From Escherichia coli (GTDB lineage Bacteria; Pseudomonadota; Gammaproteobacteria; Enterobacterales; Enterobacteriaceae): DNA of 64,000 nucleotides. Both the position numbers and the translations under genes were made by a program. Under the pieces are notes generated by a model, which did no database searches, was not told the DNA's origin, and saw nothing but the letters and a program-made list of their open reading frames with translations. Numbering within the stretch: the stretch's first letter is position 1; the number at the start of each line of letters is the position of its first letter. Below, one piece after another: positions 41,200 to 52,389 of this stretch. Where the stretch lies: NCBI RefSeq assembly GCF_013122565.1, contig NZ_CP053258.1. One strand, written 5' to 3'.

Positions 41200-41300
<101 letters not shown>

Positions 41301-43456: not shown

Positions 43457-43522
43457 AATGGTTCGTCTTTTAGCCGTTTTATTCAGTATAGATTTGCGGC
43501 GGAATCTAACAGAAAGCAAGCA

Positions 43523-43767
43523 AAGAAAAAAGGCGACAGATTACTCTGTCGCCTTTTTTCCTGACTCATAACCCTTAACGGGTCTTACAATCCTTGCAGG
43601 CCGCCAACACACCCTGTTTTTCCATTAGCCGGAACAATCCGTGTTGATTCCATTTCCGTTTAATTACGTCTCCGGACGTTTGTCTTCCTGACAATCCTCT
43701 GTCTTCGCCTCCTGGCGCTCCTGACCCTCATCCTGAGTCATTGTTCCTGTTAGCGTCCTCGCTCTAT
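43523..43767 (-). ncRNA. csrC: CsrC small RNA (CsrA-sequestering)
   Basis: Minus-strand sequence begins ATAGAGCGAGGACGCTAACAGGAACAATGACTCAGGATGAGGGTCAGGAGCG, carries many GGA motifs, and ends in the terminator GGCGACAGAGTAATCTGTCGCCTTTTTT; lies between yihI and engB. Confidence 0.8.
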
Positions 43768-44794: not shown

Positions 44795-44903
44795 ATAAAA
44801 AACGCCCCAGTCATTACTGACTGGGGCGGCTAAAATATTCAGCCAAATCCGATTACGTGAAGTAAAAGGTCTGAAAGATAGAACATCTTACCTCTGTACC
44901 CTA
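44795..44903 (-). ncRNA. spf: Spot 42 small RNA
   Basis: Reverse complement reads GTAGGGTACAGAGGTAAGATGTTCTATCTTTCAGACCTTTTACTTCACGTAATCGGATTTGGCTGAATATTTTAGCCGCCCCAGTCAGTAATGACTGGGGCGTTTTTTA. Confidence 0.9.
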
Positions 44904-45051
44904 CGCGACTAACTTTACTCTTTTTTGTTCAGTTCAGAAAGCACTTTTTGTAATTTTTTTTCAGTTGTTGCATAGGAATTTCTAATAGCCATCACAAAAC
45001 GTGACAGCTTATGTTGCTTACTTACGAAAAAAGGGCATGTTCAGGCGAATC

Positions 45052-47838
45052 TTAGTGCGCCTGATCCCAGTTTTCGCCACTCCCCACTTCCACCAGCAAC
45101 GGCACATCCAGACGGGTACAGTTTTCCATCAGTTGATGAATCTGCTTCGCGACGGCATCGACATCATCTTTATGAACTTCAAATACCAGTTCATCGTGTA
45201 CCTGCATGATCATACGCACACGCGGTTGCTCAGCCTGTAACCACGCATCAACGGCAATCATCGCCCGTTTGATAATGTCGGCGGCGGTTCCCTGCATTGG
45301 CGCGTTAATAGCTGCACGTTCAGCCGCTGCACGACGAGCACCATTGCTGGATTTGATATCCGGCAGATACAGACGGCGTCCGTCCAGCGTTTCAACGTAG
45401 CCCTGCTCTTTCGCCTGAGCACGGGTGCGTTCCATATACTCCAGCACGCCAGGGTAGCGTTCGAAGTAAAGGTCCATGTACTTCTGCGCTTCTTTACGTG
45501 GAATGTTCAATTGCCGCGCCAGACCGAAAGCACTCATGCCATAAATCAGACCAAAGTTGATCGCTTTCGCGCTACGGCGTTGCTCGCTGGTGACGGTTTC
45601 CAGTGGCAAACCAAACACTTCTGCCGCCGTTGCCCGGTGGATATCTTTTCCTTCCGCGAATGCGGTCAGCAAGCCTTTGTCACGCGAGAGATGCGCCATA
45701 ATGCGCAGTTCAATCTGCGAGTAGTCCGCTGAGACAATCACATAATCCTCTGGCGCAATAAACGCCTGGCGGATACGACGACCTTCTTCGTTACGCACCG
45801 GAATGTTTTGCAGGTTAGGATCGGTTGACGATAAACGTCCCGTTGCAGTTACTGCCTGGTGATAAGAGGTATGCACACGCCCGGTTTTCGGGTTGATCAT
45901 CAGCGGCAGCTTGTCGGTGTAAGTCGACTTCAGCTTCGCCAGACCACGATACTCCAGAATCACTTTTGGCAACGGATAGTCCAGCGCCAGTTCTTCCAGT
46001 ACCTCTTCCGACGTTGACGGCGCGCCACCCGGCGTTTTCTTCAGCGGTTTAATGCCCTGTTTTTCAAACAGAATGGTTTGTAACTGCTTGGTGGAAGAAA
46101 GGTTAAATTCTTCACCTGCAATTTCATGCGCTTTCTTTTCCAGCTCAGCAAGACGAAGGGTGAGCTCTTCAGAATGATTGTGCAGCACTTTCGGATCGAT
46201 CTTCACACCGTTACGTTCAATGCGTGAAAGCACCGGCACCAGCGGCATTTCGATATTCTCGAAGACGTTCAACGGCCCTTTGTGTTTTTGCAGATCCGGC
46301 CACATTTTCAGATGCAACTGCAAGGTGACATCCGCATCTTCGGCGGCGTAACGTCCGGCCTCTTCGAGGGCAATCTGGTTAAAGGTCAGTTGATTTTTGC
46401 CTTTACCCGCAATCTCTTCAAAAGTGATGGTTTTGTGCTTCAACCAACGTTCCGCGAGGCTGTCCATATCGTGACGCCCGGCAACGCTATTGAGAATGTA
46501 GGACTCCAGCATGGTATCAAACGCAATCCCACGCAGCTCAATGCCGTAATTCGCCAGAATACCGCGGTCGTATTTCAGGTTTTGCCCGACCTTCAGCGCC
46601 TTTTCATTTTCCAGCAGCGGTTTTAGCAACTCGAGTGCACGCTCGCGAGAGATTTGATCGGGCGCATCAAGATAATCATGAGCAACCGGAATATATGCCG
46701 CTACGCCTGGCTCGATAGCAAAAGAAAGCCCGACCAGGTTAGCAGAGATGTTATCGAGGCTGTCGGTTTCGGTATCAAATGCAAATACCGGCGCTTTTTC
46801 CAGCTTCGCAATCCACGCTTTCAGTGTTTCTTCATCAAGGATGGTGACGTAGTTGTCATAAGAAATCACCGTTGCCGTCACTTCTGGCGCTTCGTCTGCA
46901 ACACTGGTTTCCTGCGGTCTGGCTGCGGGTTTCGCCCCTTTAGCCTGTAACCATTTGCCCGCTTCGACATCAGCAGTCCAGCGTTTGAACTCATACTTTT
47001 TGAACAGCCCCAACAACTCTTCCGCCGCCGGTTGCTGCACTTCCAGTTGTTCACAGGTCAGCTCCAGTTCAACGTCGGTTTTAATCGTCGCCAGCTGGTA
47101 TGAGAGATAAGCAACTTCTTTGTTTTGCTCGAGCTTCGCTGCCATTGTTTTCGCGCCACGGAAGCTCAACCCAGCAATTTTTTCTGGCTCGGCATACAGC
47201 GTATCCAGTCCGCCAAGACCTTGCAGCAATGCCTGCGCGGTTTTTTCACCGACGCCCGGTACGCCAGGGATGTTATCAGAGGAGTCACCCATCAGCGCCA
47301 GGAAGTCGATGATCAGTTCAGGCGGCACGCCGTACTTATTCACCACCTCTTCCGGTCCGAGGATGGTATTCGTCATGGTATTGATAAGCGTAATATTTGG
47401 CGTCACCAGCTGCGCCATATCTTTATCGCCAGTGCTGATCAGCACCGGACGCCCAGCTTTTTCGGCTTCGCGCGCCAGAGTACCGATAACGTCGTCCGCT
47501 TCTACGCCAGAAACCGCCAGCAGCGGCAGTCCCATCGCTTTAACCATCGCGTGCAGAGGTTCGATTTGTGCTCGCAGATCGTCCGGCATTGGCGGGCGAT
47601 GTGATTTGTAATGTTCAAACAGTTCATCACGAAAGGTTTTTCCCTTGGCGTCAAAGACCACCGCTGCATGCGTCGGTTTATATTGCATGATCAGACTGCG
47701 CAGCATGTTGAGGACACCATACATCGCACCGGTAGGCTCGCCTGCGCTGTTAGTCAGCGGGGGAAACGCGTGATATGCGCGATAAAGATAAGATGAACCA
47801 TCTACAAGGATAAGTGGATTTTGGGGGATCTGAACCAT
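45052..47838 (-). CDS. polA: DNA polymerase I
   Basis: 928 aa; [21 protein letters not shown] 5'-nuclease N-terminus; Klenow motifs. Confidence 0.95.
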
Positions 47839-47961
47839 AATGTCCGTGCCTGTTTATCAGTTTATGGGTAAAGGATGCCACAGACAGGATGAAAACATGA
47901 GTTTTTCGCCGCTTTTCGTGAAAATCTTTTGTAGATCTTCTGGATCGCTCGCAAATCGTCA

Positions 47962-47970
47962 TGTGGATAA
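47962..47970 (-). promoter_or_regulatory. DnaA box (TTATCCACA) in polA upstream region
   Basis: Plus strand tgtggataa is the reverse complement of the 9-mer consensus; a second near-consensus box tgtggatag lies at 48103-48111. Confidence 0.5.
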
Positions 47971-48201
47971 CTTTGTGCATAAATTATTTACATCGCTTTT
48001 AATTTATTATCATGCTTTTTACAGCATGATGTTTGTCTTTGTTTTTCATGTAGTTAAAAATAAAGCCATCCCTAATAATTGAGATAATGGGATTTTTTCT
48101 AATGTGGATAGATATGAATTATTTTTCTCCTTAAGGATCATCCGTTATTTGGGGCGTTTTCTGCTAAAATCTGCGCCTTGCGCTTCTTTAGCGCACTGTC
48201 T

Positions 48202-49134
48202 ATGGCTAACCTTTTGAATAAATTCATTATGACGAGAATACTCGCTGCGATAACCCTTTTGCTGAGTATCGTATTGACCATTTTGGTCACTATTTTTTGC
48301 TCCGTCCCGATCATCATTGCCGGGATTGTAAAACTATTGCTACCTGTGCCAGTCATTTGGCGAAAGGTTTCGCGTTTTTGTGATTTTATGATGTATTGCT
48401 GGTGCGAAGGTCTGGCGGTATTACTGCATCTGAACCCACACCTGCAATGGGAAGTTCACGGGCTGGAAGGGTTAAGTAAGAAGAACTGGTATCTGCTTAT
48501 TTGTAACCACCGTAGTTGGGCAGATATTGTCGTACTGTGCGTGCTGTTTCGTAAGCACATTCCGATGAATAAATATTTCCTCAAGCAGCAACTGGCCTGG
48601 GTGCCTTTTCTTGGCCTGGCGTGCTGGGCGCTGGATATGCCGTTTATGAAGCGTTATTCCCGCGCTTATTTATTACGTCATCCGGAGCGACGTGGTAAAG
48701 ATGTCGAAACCACTCGGCGTTCTTGTGAAAAGTTTCGCCTGCATCCCACCACAATTGTCAATTTCGTTGAAGGCTCCCGTTTCACGCAAGAAAAACATCT
48801 ACAAACCCACTCCACTTTTCAAAACTTGTTGCCACCAAAGGCGGCAGGCATTGCGATGGCGCTAAATGTACTGGGTAAACAATTCGATAAACTTCTTAAT
48901 GTTACGCTGTGTTATCCGGACAATAACCGTCAGCCGTTCTTCGATATGTTAAGCGGTAAACTGACGCGAATTGTCGTACATGTGGATTTGCAGCCTATTT
49001 CCGATGAGTTACATGGCGACTACATCAATGACAAAAGCTTTAAGCGCCATTTTCAGCAATGGCTGAACTCACTGTGGCAGGAAAAAGACCGGCTTCTGAC
49101 GTCGTTGATGTCATCACAGCGGCAGGACAAGTAA
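48202..49134 (+). CDS. yihG: Acyltransferase (PlsC-like) YihG
   Basis: 310 aa from [16 protein letters not shown] acyltransferase motif. Confidence 0.85.
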
Positions 49135-49174: not shown

Positions 49175-50605
49175 TTAATGAACAAAACGTCCGGCACGAG
49201 ACATAAATTCTTCTTCGCTCATCTCCTGTCCGTTAAAAACAACTTTACCCGGTGTATAACGCAGTTGCAGCGAGGCGGTATTGTTGTCAATCGTGATTAA
49301 CTGAAACATCTGACCTAAGGTCATCATCCCGCTGATTTGTTTATCAGCCTGCTTTTGCGCTTTTTCCGCATCCATTCCTTCAGATAAATTAAGCTGTTTT
49401 GCGATTTCTGTGACGACATTAAGCGGTAACTTCACATCAAAATTGAGCGATTTGATATCTTTGTTTGTGGATGATGAAGATTTGGCTGGGTCGGCAATAC
49501 TGATATCCAGATTGGCATTTAGTTCGCCGAGTGCGTTCTTCCATCTTACCGGTTGTTTAATGGTCGGCTCACTTTGTTGTAATAACGGTAAATACTCTTT
49601 GAACAATGCAGCATTCACTTCTTGCAGAGCAACTTCATCGTTTGCTAACTCAGGGTGTGCAGCAAGCTGCTTCTGCATCGCAATGTTATAATGGATGATA
49701 AATTGGCGCACTGCTGAGGGATCAATAGATTCAGCAATCAATGACCACTCACCACTACCGAGTTGCTGATTCCCTTTTGTTAACTTATCAAGTTCGTAGG
49801 TCAGATTGACATTGATATAATCTTTGTCTTTAACGCGATCCAGCCTGGTTTTTGCAACGAAAGCATCGATTTGGGCAACGTCTTCCCCCTGATTGATAAT
49901 ATTAACCTGATTAAATTTCGACTCGCTTTCACCAACCGGAAATTTCTTTTCTTCTAATCGTGTCAGAGAATCAATGGTAAAACTTTTTGCCGTTACTTTG
50001 TTCATTGGTGATAATTGCAGAACAATATCTTCGACTTTGCCTTCAATATCCAGGTTAGACAATGAACTACCATCACCATTAAAAGTAAACTGGCCTTCAC
50101 CAAAGGAAAACTTTCCATACTCTGCAGGGGCAACATCTAATGTCGTGGAGAAGGAGCCACCAAACGCGAATCGCAATGTTGCTTCCACGGGCGATTTATT
50201 TTTCGCGGCAATAAATAGCGGTTGTGTCAGTTCATTATTCACTAAGCTCACTTTTGCCGCTGCCAGTGCTGGGATGACATTACCATGCATTAACATTGTG
50301 ATGGGCAACGGACCGTGCTCAACATCCACATCAAATGCAACTTTCTGGCCTGGCTTGATATTGAGATCGGGTGCACCGTTATCAAATGAAATTTGCATTT
50401 GAAAATGGGAATTAAAAAAGCCTTTGTCAAAGTTTTTATAACTTAACGTCATATCGTAGGCATGTTCACCTTTCTTTTTAGCATCGTTAAAATCTTTAAT
50501 AAATTTTTCGACACCAGGCTGAATTTGCGTACCTGTGTACCATGTGCCACCACCCCAGATTACGGCTAACGCAACAATAACACCTGTAGCTGACTTACGT
50601 ATCAT
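49175..50605 (-). CDS. yihF: DUF945-family protein YihF
   Basis: ORF 49175-50647; 476 aa from MIRKSATGVIVALAV (N-terminal signal/TM). Confidence 0.8.
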   Translation of the reverse strand: MIRKSATGVIVALAVIWGGGTWYTGTQIQPGVEKFIKDFNDAKKKGEHAYDMTLSYKNFDKGFFNSHFQMQISFDNGAPDLNIKPGQKVAFDVDVEHGPLPITMLMHGNVIPALAAAKVSLVNNELTQPLFIAAKNKSPVEATLRFAFGGSFSTTLDVAPAEYGKFSFGEGQFTFNGDGSSLSNLDIEGKVEDIVLQLSPMNKVTAKSFTIDSLTRLEEKKFPVGESESKFNQVNIINQGEDVAQIDAFVAKTRLDRVKDKDYINVNLTYELDKLTKGNQQLGSGEWSLIAESIDPSAVRQFIIHYNIAMQKQLAAHPELANDEVALQEVNAALFKEYLPLLQQSEPTIKQPVRWKNALGELNANLDISIADPAKSSSSTNKDIKSLNFDVKLPLNVVTEIAKQLNLSEGMDAEKAQKQADKQISGMMTLGQMFQLITIDNNTASLQLRYTPGKVVFNGQEMSEEEFMSRAGRFVH

Positions 50606-50759
50606 ATAAATATTCCCTGATAAAACAGCAAAACTTTGAATATCCACTTATGCTGAAATAATGTCCAGCGGCAGGATGCATTATCAGAATGTATTTATAT
50701 TTATTAAATAATAAAAAAAGCCCGTGAATATTCACGGGCTTTATGTAATTTACATTGAA

Positions 50760-51386
50760 TTATTTTTTCTCGGACAGATATTTCACTGTATCAGCATACT
50801 GCTGAACAAAAACATCCATATTGCTGGTATCCATACCCTGCGGATTCAGCTGATATTTACCGTTAACAAACATCGCCGGAACACCACGCAATTGCACGTC
50901 AGCTGCAGCTTTTTCCTGCTGAGCGACCAGAGATTTCACCACGAAGCTGTTCCACGCCGCGTCGTACTCTTCACCTTTAATACCTGCGTTGATAAATACA
51001 TCGCGGATATCAGAAGCAGAACGAATGGTCTGGGTTTTCTGTACGCCTTCAAACAGCGGAACAGTGACTTTGTCTTCCACGCCCAGCGCCATCGCCACAG
51101 CCCATGCCTGAGTCAGATCTTTGCCCAGGTCACCACCCATGAAGTTGACGTGGTATTTAGTCATCTTCACGCCTTCCGGCAGTTTTTTCTTCACATTATC
51201 AGAAATATGCAGAACTTCTTCAAACTGATAGCAGTGCGGGCAGAAGAAAGAGAAAAACTCCAGCACTTGCGGCGCGCCAGCTACCGGTTTTTCCAGGGTA
51301 GTGTACTGTTTACCATCTTCATACTGCGCCGCCGATGTGCTAAACGCTAAAACTAAACCAGCCAGCGCCAGCCAAATCTTTTTCAT
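50760..51386 (-). CDS. dsbA: Periplasmic thiol:disulfide oxidoreductase DsbA
   Basis: 208 aa; signal peptide; active site [12 protein letters not shown]. Confidence 0.95.
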
Positions 51387-51402: not shown

Positions 51403-52389
51403 TTAATACATAGGTGTTAATTGCAAAGGGGGTTCTTGTAGAACTTTTGCCTGTTCTATAAAAGTCGCCGTCTGTCGTAGCCAGTAATCTTCCCCGGTTA
51501 ACCACGGGAAATTTTTCGGGAACGCGGGATCAGCCCAACGCCGTATTAGCCAGGCAAGATAATAAACCAAACGCATGGCGCGTAAAGGTTCAATCAGTCC
51601 GATTTCAGCGGTGTCGAACTCGCTAAATTCTTCATAAGCTTCAATAATAGTTTCCAGTTGCATCCGCTGCTCGGCTTTATCGCCATTGAGCAACATCCAC
51701 AAATCCTGAATAGCTGGACCATTACGTGCATCATCCAGATCAACAAACATTGGACCATCGCGCCAGAGAATATTCCCGGCGTGGCAGTCTCCATGTAGCC
51801 GCAGAACGGTGAAATCTTCCCGCCAGTGTGCTGTAACGGCGGCGATCAGCTCATCTGTCGCTTTCAGGAATGCCGCTTTCAACCCGGAAGGTATCAGTGT
51901 AGCGTCCTCAAACAGCTTGCGTGGCTCAATGAGATATTCATTCAGACCGATGGTCGGGCGATGGATAAAAAGCTGTTTGCGCCCCGTCTGGTGCATACGC
52001 CCTAAATAACGCCCAACCGCTTCCATCTGATCGATATTATCAGCTTCGAACTGGCGACCACCGACGCTGGGAAAAACAGCGAAATAAAATCCCTGATGAT
52101 TCAATAAAGTCTGACCGTTAAAAGCCACAGGTGCTGCAACCGGAACTTCATCATTTACCAGCTGCAACGCAAATTGATGTTCTTCGAGGATTTGATCGGC
52201 TGTCCAACGTTCAGGACGATAAAATTTGACGACAAAACGTCGACGATCTTCGTCCTGAAATTGATAGACACGGTTTTCATAGCTGTTAAGCGGGGTAAGA
52301 CCGGAATCCACCCGGATCCCATGCTCAAACAGAGCGTCCATGATGGTATCCGGGTGTAGTGTCTGGAAAGTAAAAGCGCTGTTGTTCAT
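51403..52389 (-). CDS. srkA: Stress-response Ser/Thr kinase SrkA (YihE)
   Basis: 328 aa; kinase-like LHGDCHAGN and VDLDD motifs. Confidence 0.85.
   Translation of the reverse strand: MNNSAFTFQTLHPDTIMDALFEHGIRVDSGLTPLNSYENRVYQFQDEDRRRFVVKFYRPERWTADQILEEHQFALQLVNDEVPVAAPVAFNGQTLLNHQGFYFAVFPSVGGRQFEADNIDQMEAVGRYLGRMHQTGRKQLFIHRPTIGLNEYLIEPRKLFEDATLIPSGLKAAFLKATDELIAAVTAHWREDFTVLRLHGDCHAGNILWRDGPMFVDLDDARNGPAIQDLWMLLNGDKAEQRMQLETIIEAYEEFSEFDTAEIGLIEPLRAMRLVYYLAWLIRRWADPAFPKNFPWLTGEDYWLRQTATFIEQAKVLQEPPLQLTPMY

Follow-up and report, generated by a model that had tools for sequence, protein, structure and literature searches.

The closest described relatives of the locus analyzed here are the double DnaA boxes of E. 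coli, in which two boxes of the same orientation lie 2 or 3 bp apart (3 bp at polA), a class that includes purH, DARS2, datA, nrdA, and polA itself (PMC11317965). In the DnaA ChIP-seq study of E. coli K-12 by Stringer, Fitzgerald, and Wade in 2024, 16 bound regions were identified, polA included; the polA peak, at position 4,046,831, was enriched 123-fold, which is among the highest values in the table, on a par with purH and exceeding nrdA, mioC, and dnaA, and the site listed for it in Table 1 is tTTATGCACAaagTTATCCACAt (PMC11317965). Mutagenesis at purH showed that DnaA binding needs both halves and a spacing of 2 to 3 bp, single consensus boxes were found to be usually unbound alone and poor predictors of binding, and activation of transcription by DnaA was described as "poorly understood" (PMC11317965). 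The nrdA site likewise stands upstream of a replication-related gene and has a double box, gTTATCCACAaagTTATGCACTt, also with an AAG spacer, but its strong and weak halves are in the reverse order relative to polA and its ChIP signal is approximately 9-fold lower (PMC11317965). For polA, reviews credit Quinones, Wandt, Kleinstauber, and Messer in 1997 (PMID 9106210) with reporting stimulation by DnaA, notably in stationary phase; the locus and the consensus box are those found here, DnaA is reported as an activator, and the proximal box shows no difference. Later summaries mention just one site ("the" site) upstream of polA.

The window (the whole 64-kb stretch of DNA that was analyzed) contains this locus as a 363-bp spacer, at positions 47839-48201, between polA on the minus strand and yihG on the plus strand. 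The genes and the features lying upstream of the polA promoter region are as follows.

45052..47838, minus strand: polA (DNA polymerase I, 928 aa), ATG at 47838, from the open reading frame list and annotation, as in 5,425 E. coli genomes and K-12
47962..47970, minus strand: proximal consensus DnaA box TTATCCACA (tgtggataa on the plus strand), a perfect 9-mer forming the downstream half of the double box
47974..47982, minus strand: upstream partner box TTATGCACA, separated from the proximal box by the 3-bp spacer AAG and found by relaxed-consensus search
47983..48102, no strand assigned: AT-rich spacer from the distal box to the double box, 25% GC, with its length kept and its sequence not
47984..47992, plus strand: weak inverted box TTATTTACA, 7 of 9 positions matching, abutting the double box and kept within Escherichia only
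48008-48031, plus strand: inverted repeat ATCATGCT-N6-AGCATGAT, perfect over 8 bp, called as a terminator-like stem-loop by a promoter/terminator scan
48044..48056, minus strand: candidate IHF-like core TAACTACATGAAA, 2 mismatches to YAANNNNTTGATW, with its bend center approximately 68 bp from the distal-box start
48103..48111, minus strand: distal single DnaA box CTATCCACA (tgtggatag on the plus strand), oriented like the proximal box and 141 bp upstream of it
48202..49134, plus strand: yihG (acyltransferase, 310 aa), ATG at 48202, from translation and annotation, divergent from polA

The description of positions 47839-48201 in the initial annotation as a very AT-rich divergent spacer agrees with the base composition, GC content being 35.8% across the spacer and 25% between the boxes, compared with 50% for the 64-kb window. 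A sequence check found both DnaA-box matches proposed there, tgtggataa at 47962-47970 and tgtggatag at 48103-48111, to be exactly placed; the partner TTATGCACA had been missed, so that only half of the bound double box was recognized. Relative to K-12 MG1655 the spacer carries 5 SNPs in 363 bp, none of them within the boxes, and 5,425 of 5,426 complete E. coli genomes contain a match to the yihG-polA spacer. The best spacer identity among complete E. coli genomes was 98.9%, which points to a slightly divergent Escherichia/Shigella lineage. PolA residues 1 to 250 are identical to those of E. albertii, while yihG is just 90% identical.

Beyond yihG lie yihF/DUF945 (minus strand, 49175-50647), dsbA (minus strand, 50760-51386), and a 328-aa open reading frame (51403-52389) that we take to be srkA/yihE from the K-12 gene order. 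Downstream of polA, Rfam identified naRNA4 (41222-41299), CsrC (43514-43767), and Spot 42 (44796-44914), all on the minus strand and as in K-12; positions 47700-48350 gave no Rfam match at an E value of ≤1. Two open reading frames that overlap the spacer, one of 80 aa (47840-48082, plus strand) and one of 72 aa (48138-48356, minus strand), had no other support and are probably spurious; one RefSeq E. coli genome annotates the latter as "hypothetical protein." The inverted repeat at 48008-48031 was also set aside as a functional element, as neither E. albertii nor a divergent Escherichia strain has it intact, and it probably has no function.

The two adjoining boxes, TTATGCACA-AAG-TTATCCACA, have the same orientation and a 3-bp spacer and together make up a double DnaA box at 47962-47982. 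In a TTWTNCACA-type 9-mer test TTATCCACA was a perfect match, and TTATGCACA fits the TTATNCACA consensus. A single perfect 9-mer was found in 64 kb, against 0.54 to 0.58 expected, which is within chance; a pair of double-box quality occurred once in the window and in none of 100 first-order Markov simulations. The core ...CACA-AAG-TTATCCACA is invariant across 27 non-redundant loci. The polA site in Table 1 of PMC11317965 matches the window letter for letter. K-12 positions 4,046,822-4,046,842 read TTATGCACAaagTTATCCACA, identical to the window, and the ChIP peak center falls in the 3-bp spacer; the footnote of that study cites NC_000913.2, but the coordinates nevertheless fit NC_000913.3 numbering for the polA site. 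Binding of a DnaA dimer to the double box has thus been shown by ChIP-seq for the identical K-12 sequence.

With the double box at a published ChIP-seq peak and a 1997 report of stimulation by DnaA, the spacer is the DnaA-bound polA control region described in earlier work, and the core finding is known. The statement in the initial annotation that DnaA-dependent modulation of polA expression has been reported is borne out by reviews citing Quinones 1997 and by the 123-fold peak on the identical K-12 sequence, and the ChIP binding that it proposed to look for exists as the published K-12 peak on the double box (PMC11317965). In that first form the finding re-identifies a textbook-level DnaA target and alone changes nothing; what is added here is the anatomy of the polA region, one of the most strongly occupied DnaA sites of the genome. 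In a proteomics study, most of the DnaA regulon was unchanged when datA, DARS1, and DARS2 were removed (PMC12371093), so the regulatory amplitude at polA may be small.

Conservation was assessed in the polA loci of 80 species, fetched with PolA residues 1 to 250. In 46 of the 80 loci, a perfect TTATCCACA in the polA orientation precedes the ATG by 92 to 185 bp; these include 21 of 24 from Enterobacterales and all five from Vibrionales, as well as many from Alteromonadales-type genomes (Shewanella, Pseudoalteromonas, Idiomarina, Rheinheimera, Alteromonas, and others). Budvicia, a member of the Enterobacterales, carries a 1-mismatch proximal box, TTATCAACA, and the proximal box was absent from the Pasteurellales, Pseudomonas, Stutzerimonas, Halomonas, and Marinomonas loci of the 80-species set. 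The distal box, CTATCCACA, misses the strict consensus at position 1 only; considered in one genome, an extra 1-mismatch box per 363 bp has an estimated probability of approximately 0.1 and is within chance. A pair scan of the 64 kb identified no partner within 2 to 3 bp on either side, making it a single box. The window and 29 of the species loci have a distal box with at most one mismatch (NTNTCCACA), oriented like the proximal box and 141 to 148 bp upstream of it, and the spacing is 141 to 143 bp in nearly all Enterobacterales and Vibrionaceae. The boxes of the initial annotation are therefore conserved in related genomes.

In box-anchored profiles, distal-box positions 2 and 4 to 9 were nearly invariant and the flanks showed no conservation. 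Mean column identity over the upstream region was 41%, with the DNA between the motifs essentially unconserved and that between the distal and double boxes 60 to 80% AT in all taxa. In the divergent Escherichia strain, the spacer is scrambled except for the distal box, the double box, and a small number of further islands, which are intact. The double box pair is beyond chance, and both it and the distal box are conserved across three orders of Gammaproteobacteria. At polA, DnaA ChIP-seq gives a single peak, centered on the double box, and its resolution is too low to separate a site 135 bp away. As far as the literature searched shows, there appears to be no earlier description of the conserved distal box or of the IHF-like midpoint and phased promoter presented below; PMC11317965 describes for polA neither a third, distal box nor an IHF-like site nor conservation among species, and Quinones 1997 may already hold more.

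Within the AT-rich spacer, conservation is otherwise limited to columns that read TAA-N5-TGA, which fits the IHF consensus WATCAANNNNTTR in reverse complement. Matches with no more than one mismatch stand at offsets 55/56 from the distal-box start in 9 of 34 non-redundant loci, compared with six other such matches in the same motif orientation among approximately 4,000 positions elsewhere. Relatives have 0 to 1 mismatch to the IHF consensus at the equivalent place, whereas the copy in the window has 2. Enterobacterales and Aliivibrio have the motif in reverse complement, whereas loci of the Shewanella, Idiomarina, and Rheinheimera types have it in the forward orientation. Bend centers were predicted by setting the IHF pseudo-dyad one base pair 5' of the W, following our reading of the H' site. 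Counting both motif orientations, 13 of the 24 one-mismatch matches have predicted bend centers at +67 to +70 from the distal box, and with up to 2 mismatches these four offsets accumulate 31 matches, against approximately 1 to 3 for each other offset. The bend center would lie approximately 64 bp from the distal-box center and 65 bp from the center of the upstream half of the double box. Length changes of 10 to 12 bp in one arm were seen in Mangrovibacter and Pseudoalteromonas. This positioning suggests that the motif at the midpoint between the boxes is a putative IHF site. The polA/yihG region is absent from the text and supplements of a study of the 42 highest E. coli IHF peaks, for which the threshold was deliberately high. 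The polA module of Photorhabdus contains a perfect IHF-consensus match, and a preprint on temperature restriction in Photorhabdus mentions a "polA promoter" (10.1101/2020.06.02.129163).

With these elements in place, the polA region can be set beside the better-known DnaA-IHF complexes. The oriC Left-DOR has a similar layout, R1, an IHF site, and then R5M and further boxes, with a same-orientation box on each side of the IHF bend, AT-rich DNA, and GATC clusters nearby. The polA module differs in its longer arms (approximately 64 and 73 bp), in having neither a low-affinity box cluster nor a right half, and in its downstream element, which is a promoter where oriC has an unwinding element. An oriC-type test of the spacer returned three good boxes and few 2-mismatch matches, and inspection revealed no 13-mer repeats; the sequence indicates that the module is not a replication origin. 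An arrangement GATCTTCTGGATCGC-N13-TGTGGATAAC, which in our view resembles the oriC 13-mer-R/R1 junction, was considered as an oriC-like element and rejected, as no conserved 13-mer or DnaA-trio pattern was found.

Likewise, datA and DARS2, noncoding DnaA-IHF loci that convert DnaA between its ATP and ADP forms, have high DnaA occupancy and a double box with an IHF site, the latter putative at polA; datA has more boxes than the polA module. The DARS core has a specific three-box arrangement, with Fis in addition for DARS2, whereas the polA module has only a weak, Escherichia-specific inverted box. In work attributed to Fujimitsu in 2009 and Sugiyama in 2019, the DARS core is said to consist of three boxes, one of them inverted beside a direct pair, and to have ADP-release activity. 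At polA an inverted 7/9 box abuts the direct pair at 47984-47992 and is kept in Escherichia only. This box, TTATTTACA, recalls the inverted box of the DARS core and is part of a near-palindrome, TGTGCATAA-A-TTATTTACA, that is kept together with the 12-bp sequence GATGTAAATAAT only within Escherichia. For nrdA, we know of no distal box or IHF arrangement.

The following further features were identified between the double box and the polA ATG, along with one Dam site beyond the distal box.

47872..47880, minus strand: TGGCATCCT, candidate extended -10 (TRTGgCATnCT), 34 to 42 bp before the polA ATG, found by conservation
47896-47901, minus strand: weak -35-like hexamer CTCATG (TTCAnn/CTCATG), 18 bp upstream of the candidate extended -10
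47926..47954, minus strand: second candidate promoter, TTGCGA at 47949-47954, 17 bp, and CAAAAG at 47926-47931, adjoining the double box
47934-47937 and 47943-47946, no strand assigned: pair of GATC (Dam) sites, 9 bp apart, the first inside AGATCT
48136-48139, no strand assigned: third GATC

The sequence TGGCATNCT is found in the window and in 41 species loci, at 36 to 67 bp before the ATG, and every one of these carries the consensus box. It stands alongside the 1-mismatch box in Budvicia and was absent from the taxa without DnaA boxes in the 80-species set. The base preceding it is always a purine, and the one further 5' is mostly T. The resulting TRTGgCATnCT resembles an extended -10, with its A and T at -11 and -7, and is a candidate for the core promoter of polA; the predicted start is an A at 47865, 27 nucleotides before the ATG. 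TGGCAT is separated from the consensus box by distances that cluster at approximately 49, 60, 71, 81, and 91 bp; the value in E. coli is 90 bp, and in Vibrio or Shewanella the separation is 4 helical turns shorter. A Rayleigh test on the 19 distinct distances, with a period of 10.5 to 11 bp, gave a P value of approximately 0.01; the value is lower when all loci are counted, but the loci are not independent, and the signal is modest without phylogenetic redundancy. This periodicity of approximately 10.5 bp suggests that the DnaA complex keeps a constant helical face with respect to RNA polymerase. Relative to the predicted start, the center of the consensus box would lie at approximately -60 in Shewanella and approximately -101 in E. 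coli.

Both TTGCGA and CAAAAG are kept in the divergent Escherichia strain, whereas the 17-bp spacer between them diverges. The arrangement was found only in Enterobacteriaceae, within an extra stretch of approximately 40 bp between the box and TGGCAT, and may represent a second polA promoter abutting the boxes, for which a start near 47919 would be expected. A promoter scan of the spacer returned none at the threshold of the tool. The published start-site data searched hold no entry for polA, and the promoter assignment and the box-to-promoter geometry are predictions from conservation. A sigma-54 site was considered for TGGCA and rejected, the GG-to-GC spacing being 2 bp too short, as was an upstream open reading frame beginning at (A/G)TGGCAT, for which neither length nor sequence is conserved. 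Between the double box and the extended -10, the conserved islands TTTGCGAGCG and CAAAAGATTT and the A-rich tract AAAAGATTTTCACGAAAAG (47926-47954 and 47903-47925) were also observed; the islands at 47903-47954 could be the second promoter, an UP-like element, or the site of another factor.

GATC sites are enriched upstream of polA, 2.9-fold in Enterobacterales and 4.7-fold in Vibrionales, compared with 1.3-fold in taxa without boxes. This is a hint, and no more, of regulation through Dam and SeqA of the kind known from oriC and the dnaA promoter. AGATCT was also considered as a DnaA-ATP box and was discarded, being confined to Escherichia.

Taking these features together, we consider it probable that the spacer is a polA regulatory region in which three boxes of the same orientation, on the polA sense strand, support an IHF-folded DnaA complex upstream of a conserved weak promoter, with yihG not a target. 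Folding of the 120-bp spacer at its midpoint would come from IHF or from curvature intrinsic to its AT-rich DNA, and a third DnaA protomer on the distal box, brought beside the dimer on the double box, would stabilize a higher-order complex, much as IHF acts between R1 and R5M at oriC or within datA. Positioned on a fixed helical face upstream of the weak extended -10 promoter, this complex could aid RNA polymerase and so tie DNA polymerase I synthesis to DnaA availability, and the clustered GATC sites might add Dam/SeqA input after fork passage.

Several other explanations were weighed against this one. That the double box alone is functional, with the distal box, TAA-N5-TGA, and the fixed spacing being neutral leftovers, would agree with the poor predictive value of single boxes for binding (PMC11317965) and with the chance-level occurrence of a 1-mismatch box per 363 bp in a single genome; it is nonetheless highly improbable, as the distal box is near-invariant and its spacing is kept over three orders while the intervening sequence is essentially randomized, and the predicted bend center is kept despite the inversion of the motif. 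The initial annotation had instead read the distal box, being closer to yihG, as coupling yihG and polA to DnaA through shared divergent control. In this genome the box does lie 91 to 99 bp upstream of the yihG ATG, and the two genes are divergent, but a yihG homologue adjoins polA in only approximately 10 of the 80 species loci. The spacing and orientation of the distal and proximal boxes are kept where the upstream gene is dsbA, yihF/DUF945, the Vut_1 transporter, hemB, or an unrelated divergent gene, and the DnaA literature searched contains no mention of DnaA control of yihG. The coupling claim thus did not hold up, and shared control is very unlikely. As the distal box is kept whatever gene stands upstream, the comparison of loci indicates that it serves polA and not yihG and is part of a polA module older than the arrival of yihG, although an incidental effect of this box on yihG in E. 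coli is conceivable. In Photorhabdus, Pseudescherichia, Brenneria, and others (many Enterobacterales), dsbA lies directly upstream of polA and is co-directional with it; since dsbA and the srkA-like open reading frame are found just beyond yihF in the window, yihG-yihF appears to have been inserted between dsbA and the control region of polA in a lineage-specific way.

It could also be that the locus is mainly a DnaA-handling site, acting in titration or in datA/DARS-like control of the nucleotide state, with the effect on polA transcription secondary. The very high ChIP enrichment, similar to that of purH and within about 2-fold of datA, DARS2, and oriC (PMC11317965), is compatible with such a role, as are the combination of DnaA boxes with an IHF-like site in a layout like those of oriC and datA, the position in an oriC-proximal zone rich in DnaA boxes (25 boxes with at most one mismatch in the window against 13 expected), and the suggestion by the authors of the proteomics study that promoter boxes may also titrate DnaA, together with the near-absence of change there in the DnaA regulon (PMC12371093). 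Nevertheless, the module invariably accompanies polA and stays in helical phase with the conserved promoter element; a published genome screen of 52 similar box pairs, which may or may not have covered polA, yielded DARS1 and DARS2 only, and the inverted third box typical of a DARS core matches at just 7 of 9 positions here and is restricted to Escherichia. We regard a primary handling role as unlikely. Somewhat more weight, within what is still a doubtful reading, can be given to TGGCATNCT not being a promoter but an RNA element of the 5' untranslated region, the start of an upstream open reading frame, or the site of another factor, with TTGCGA-17-CAAAAG as the true promoter. The invariant G, C, and C at the nonconsensus positions -13, -12, and -8 are unusual for a sigma-70 -10, the purine that always precedes TGGCATNCT creates ATG or GTG, and TTGCGA and CAAAAG are conserved islands within Escherichia. 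However, the frames opened by this ATG or GTG vary in length and sequence in every genus, the TGGCATNCT block has no Rfam match and forms no consistent hairpin, and the T-R-T-G ahead of the hexamer fits the extended -10 motif. Outside Enterobacteriaceae, moreover, TTGCGA-17-CAAAAG is absent while the boxes and TGGCATNCT persist, and both promoters could coexist.

The IHF-folded DnaA complex upstream of the polA promoter thus remains the preferred reading. The module is common to Enterobacterales, Vibrionales, and Alteromonadales-type genomes and is missing in Pasteurellales and Pseudomonas-like taxa. It is possible, and proposed here only tentatively, that the distal box, IHF bend, double box, and phased promoter form an ancient module that would be a further conserved DnaA-IHF complex besides oriC, datA, and DARS2, linking the supply of DNA polymerase I, and possibly the titration of DnaA near the origin, to the initiation cycle. 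The conserved layout of three boxes and an IHF site, with its fixed arms and helical phasing, offers a concrete, mutable model for activation by DnaA and lets one ask whether promoter boxes act as organized DnaA-IHF complexes, as at oriC and datA; as a testable activation model it should be of moderate interest to specialists.

Across the window, boxes with at most one mismatch to TTATCCACA number 25, compared with 13.1 ± 3.9 expected, and 1 of 100 simulations reached 25. Apart from the polA trio, no other double box was present among them. The 25 near-consensus boxes fit the published enrichment of DnaA boxes around oriC (PMC12371093).
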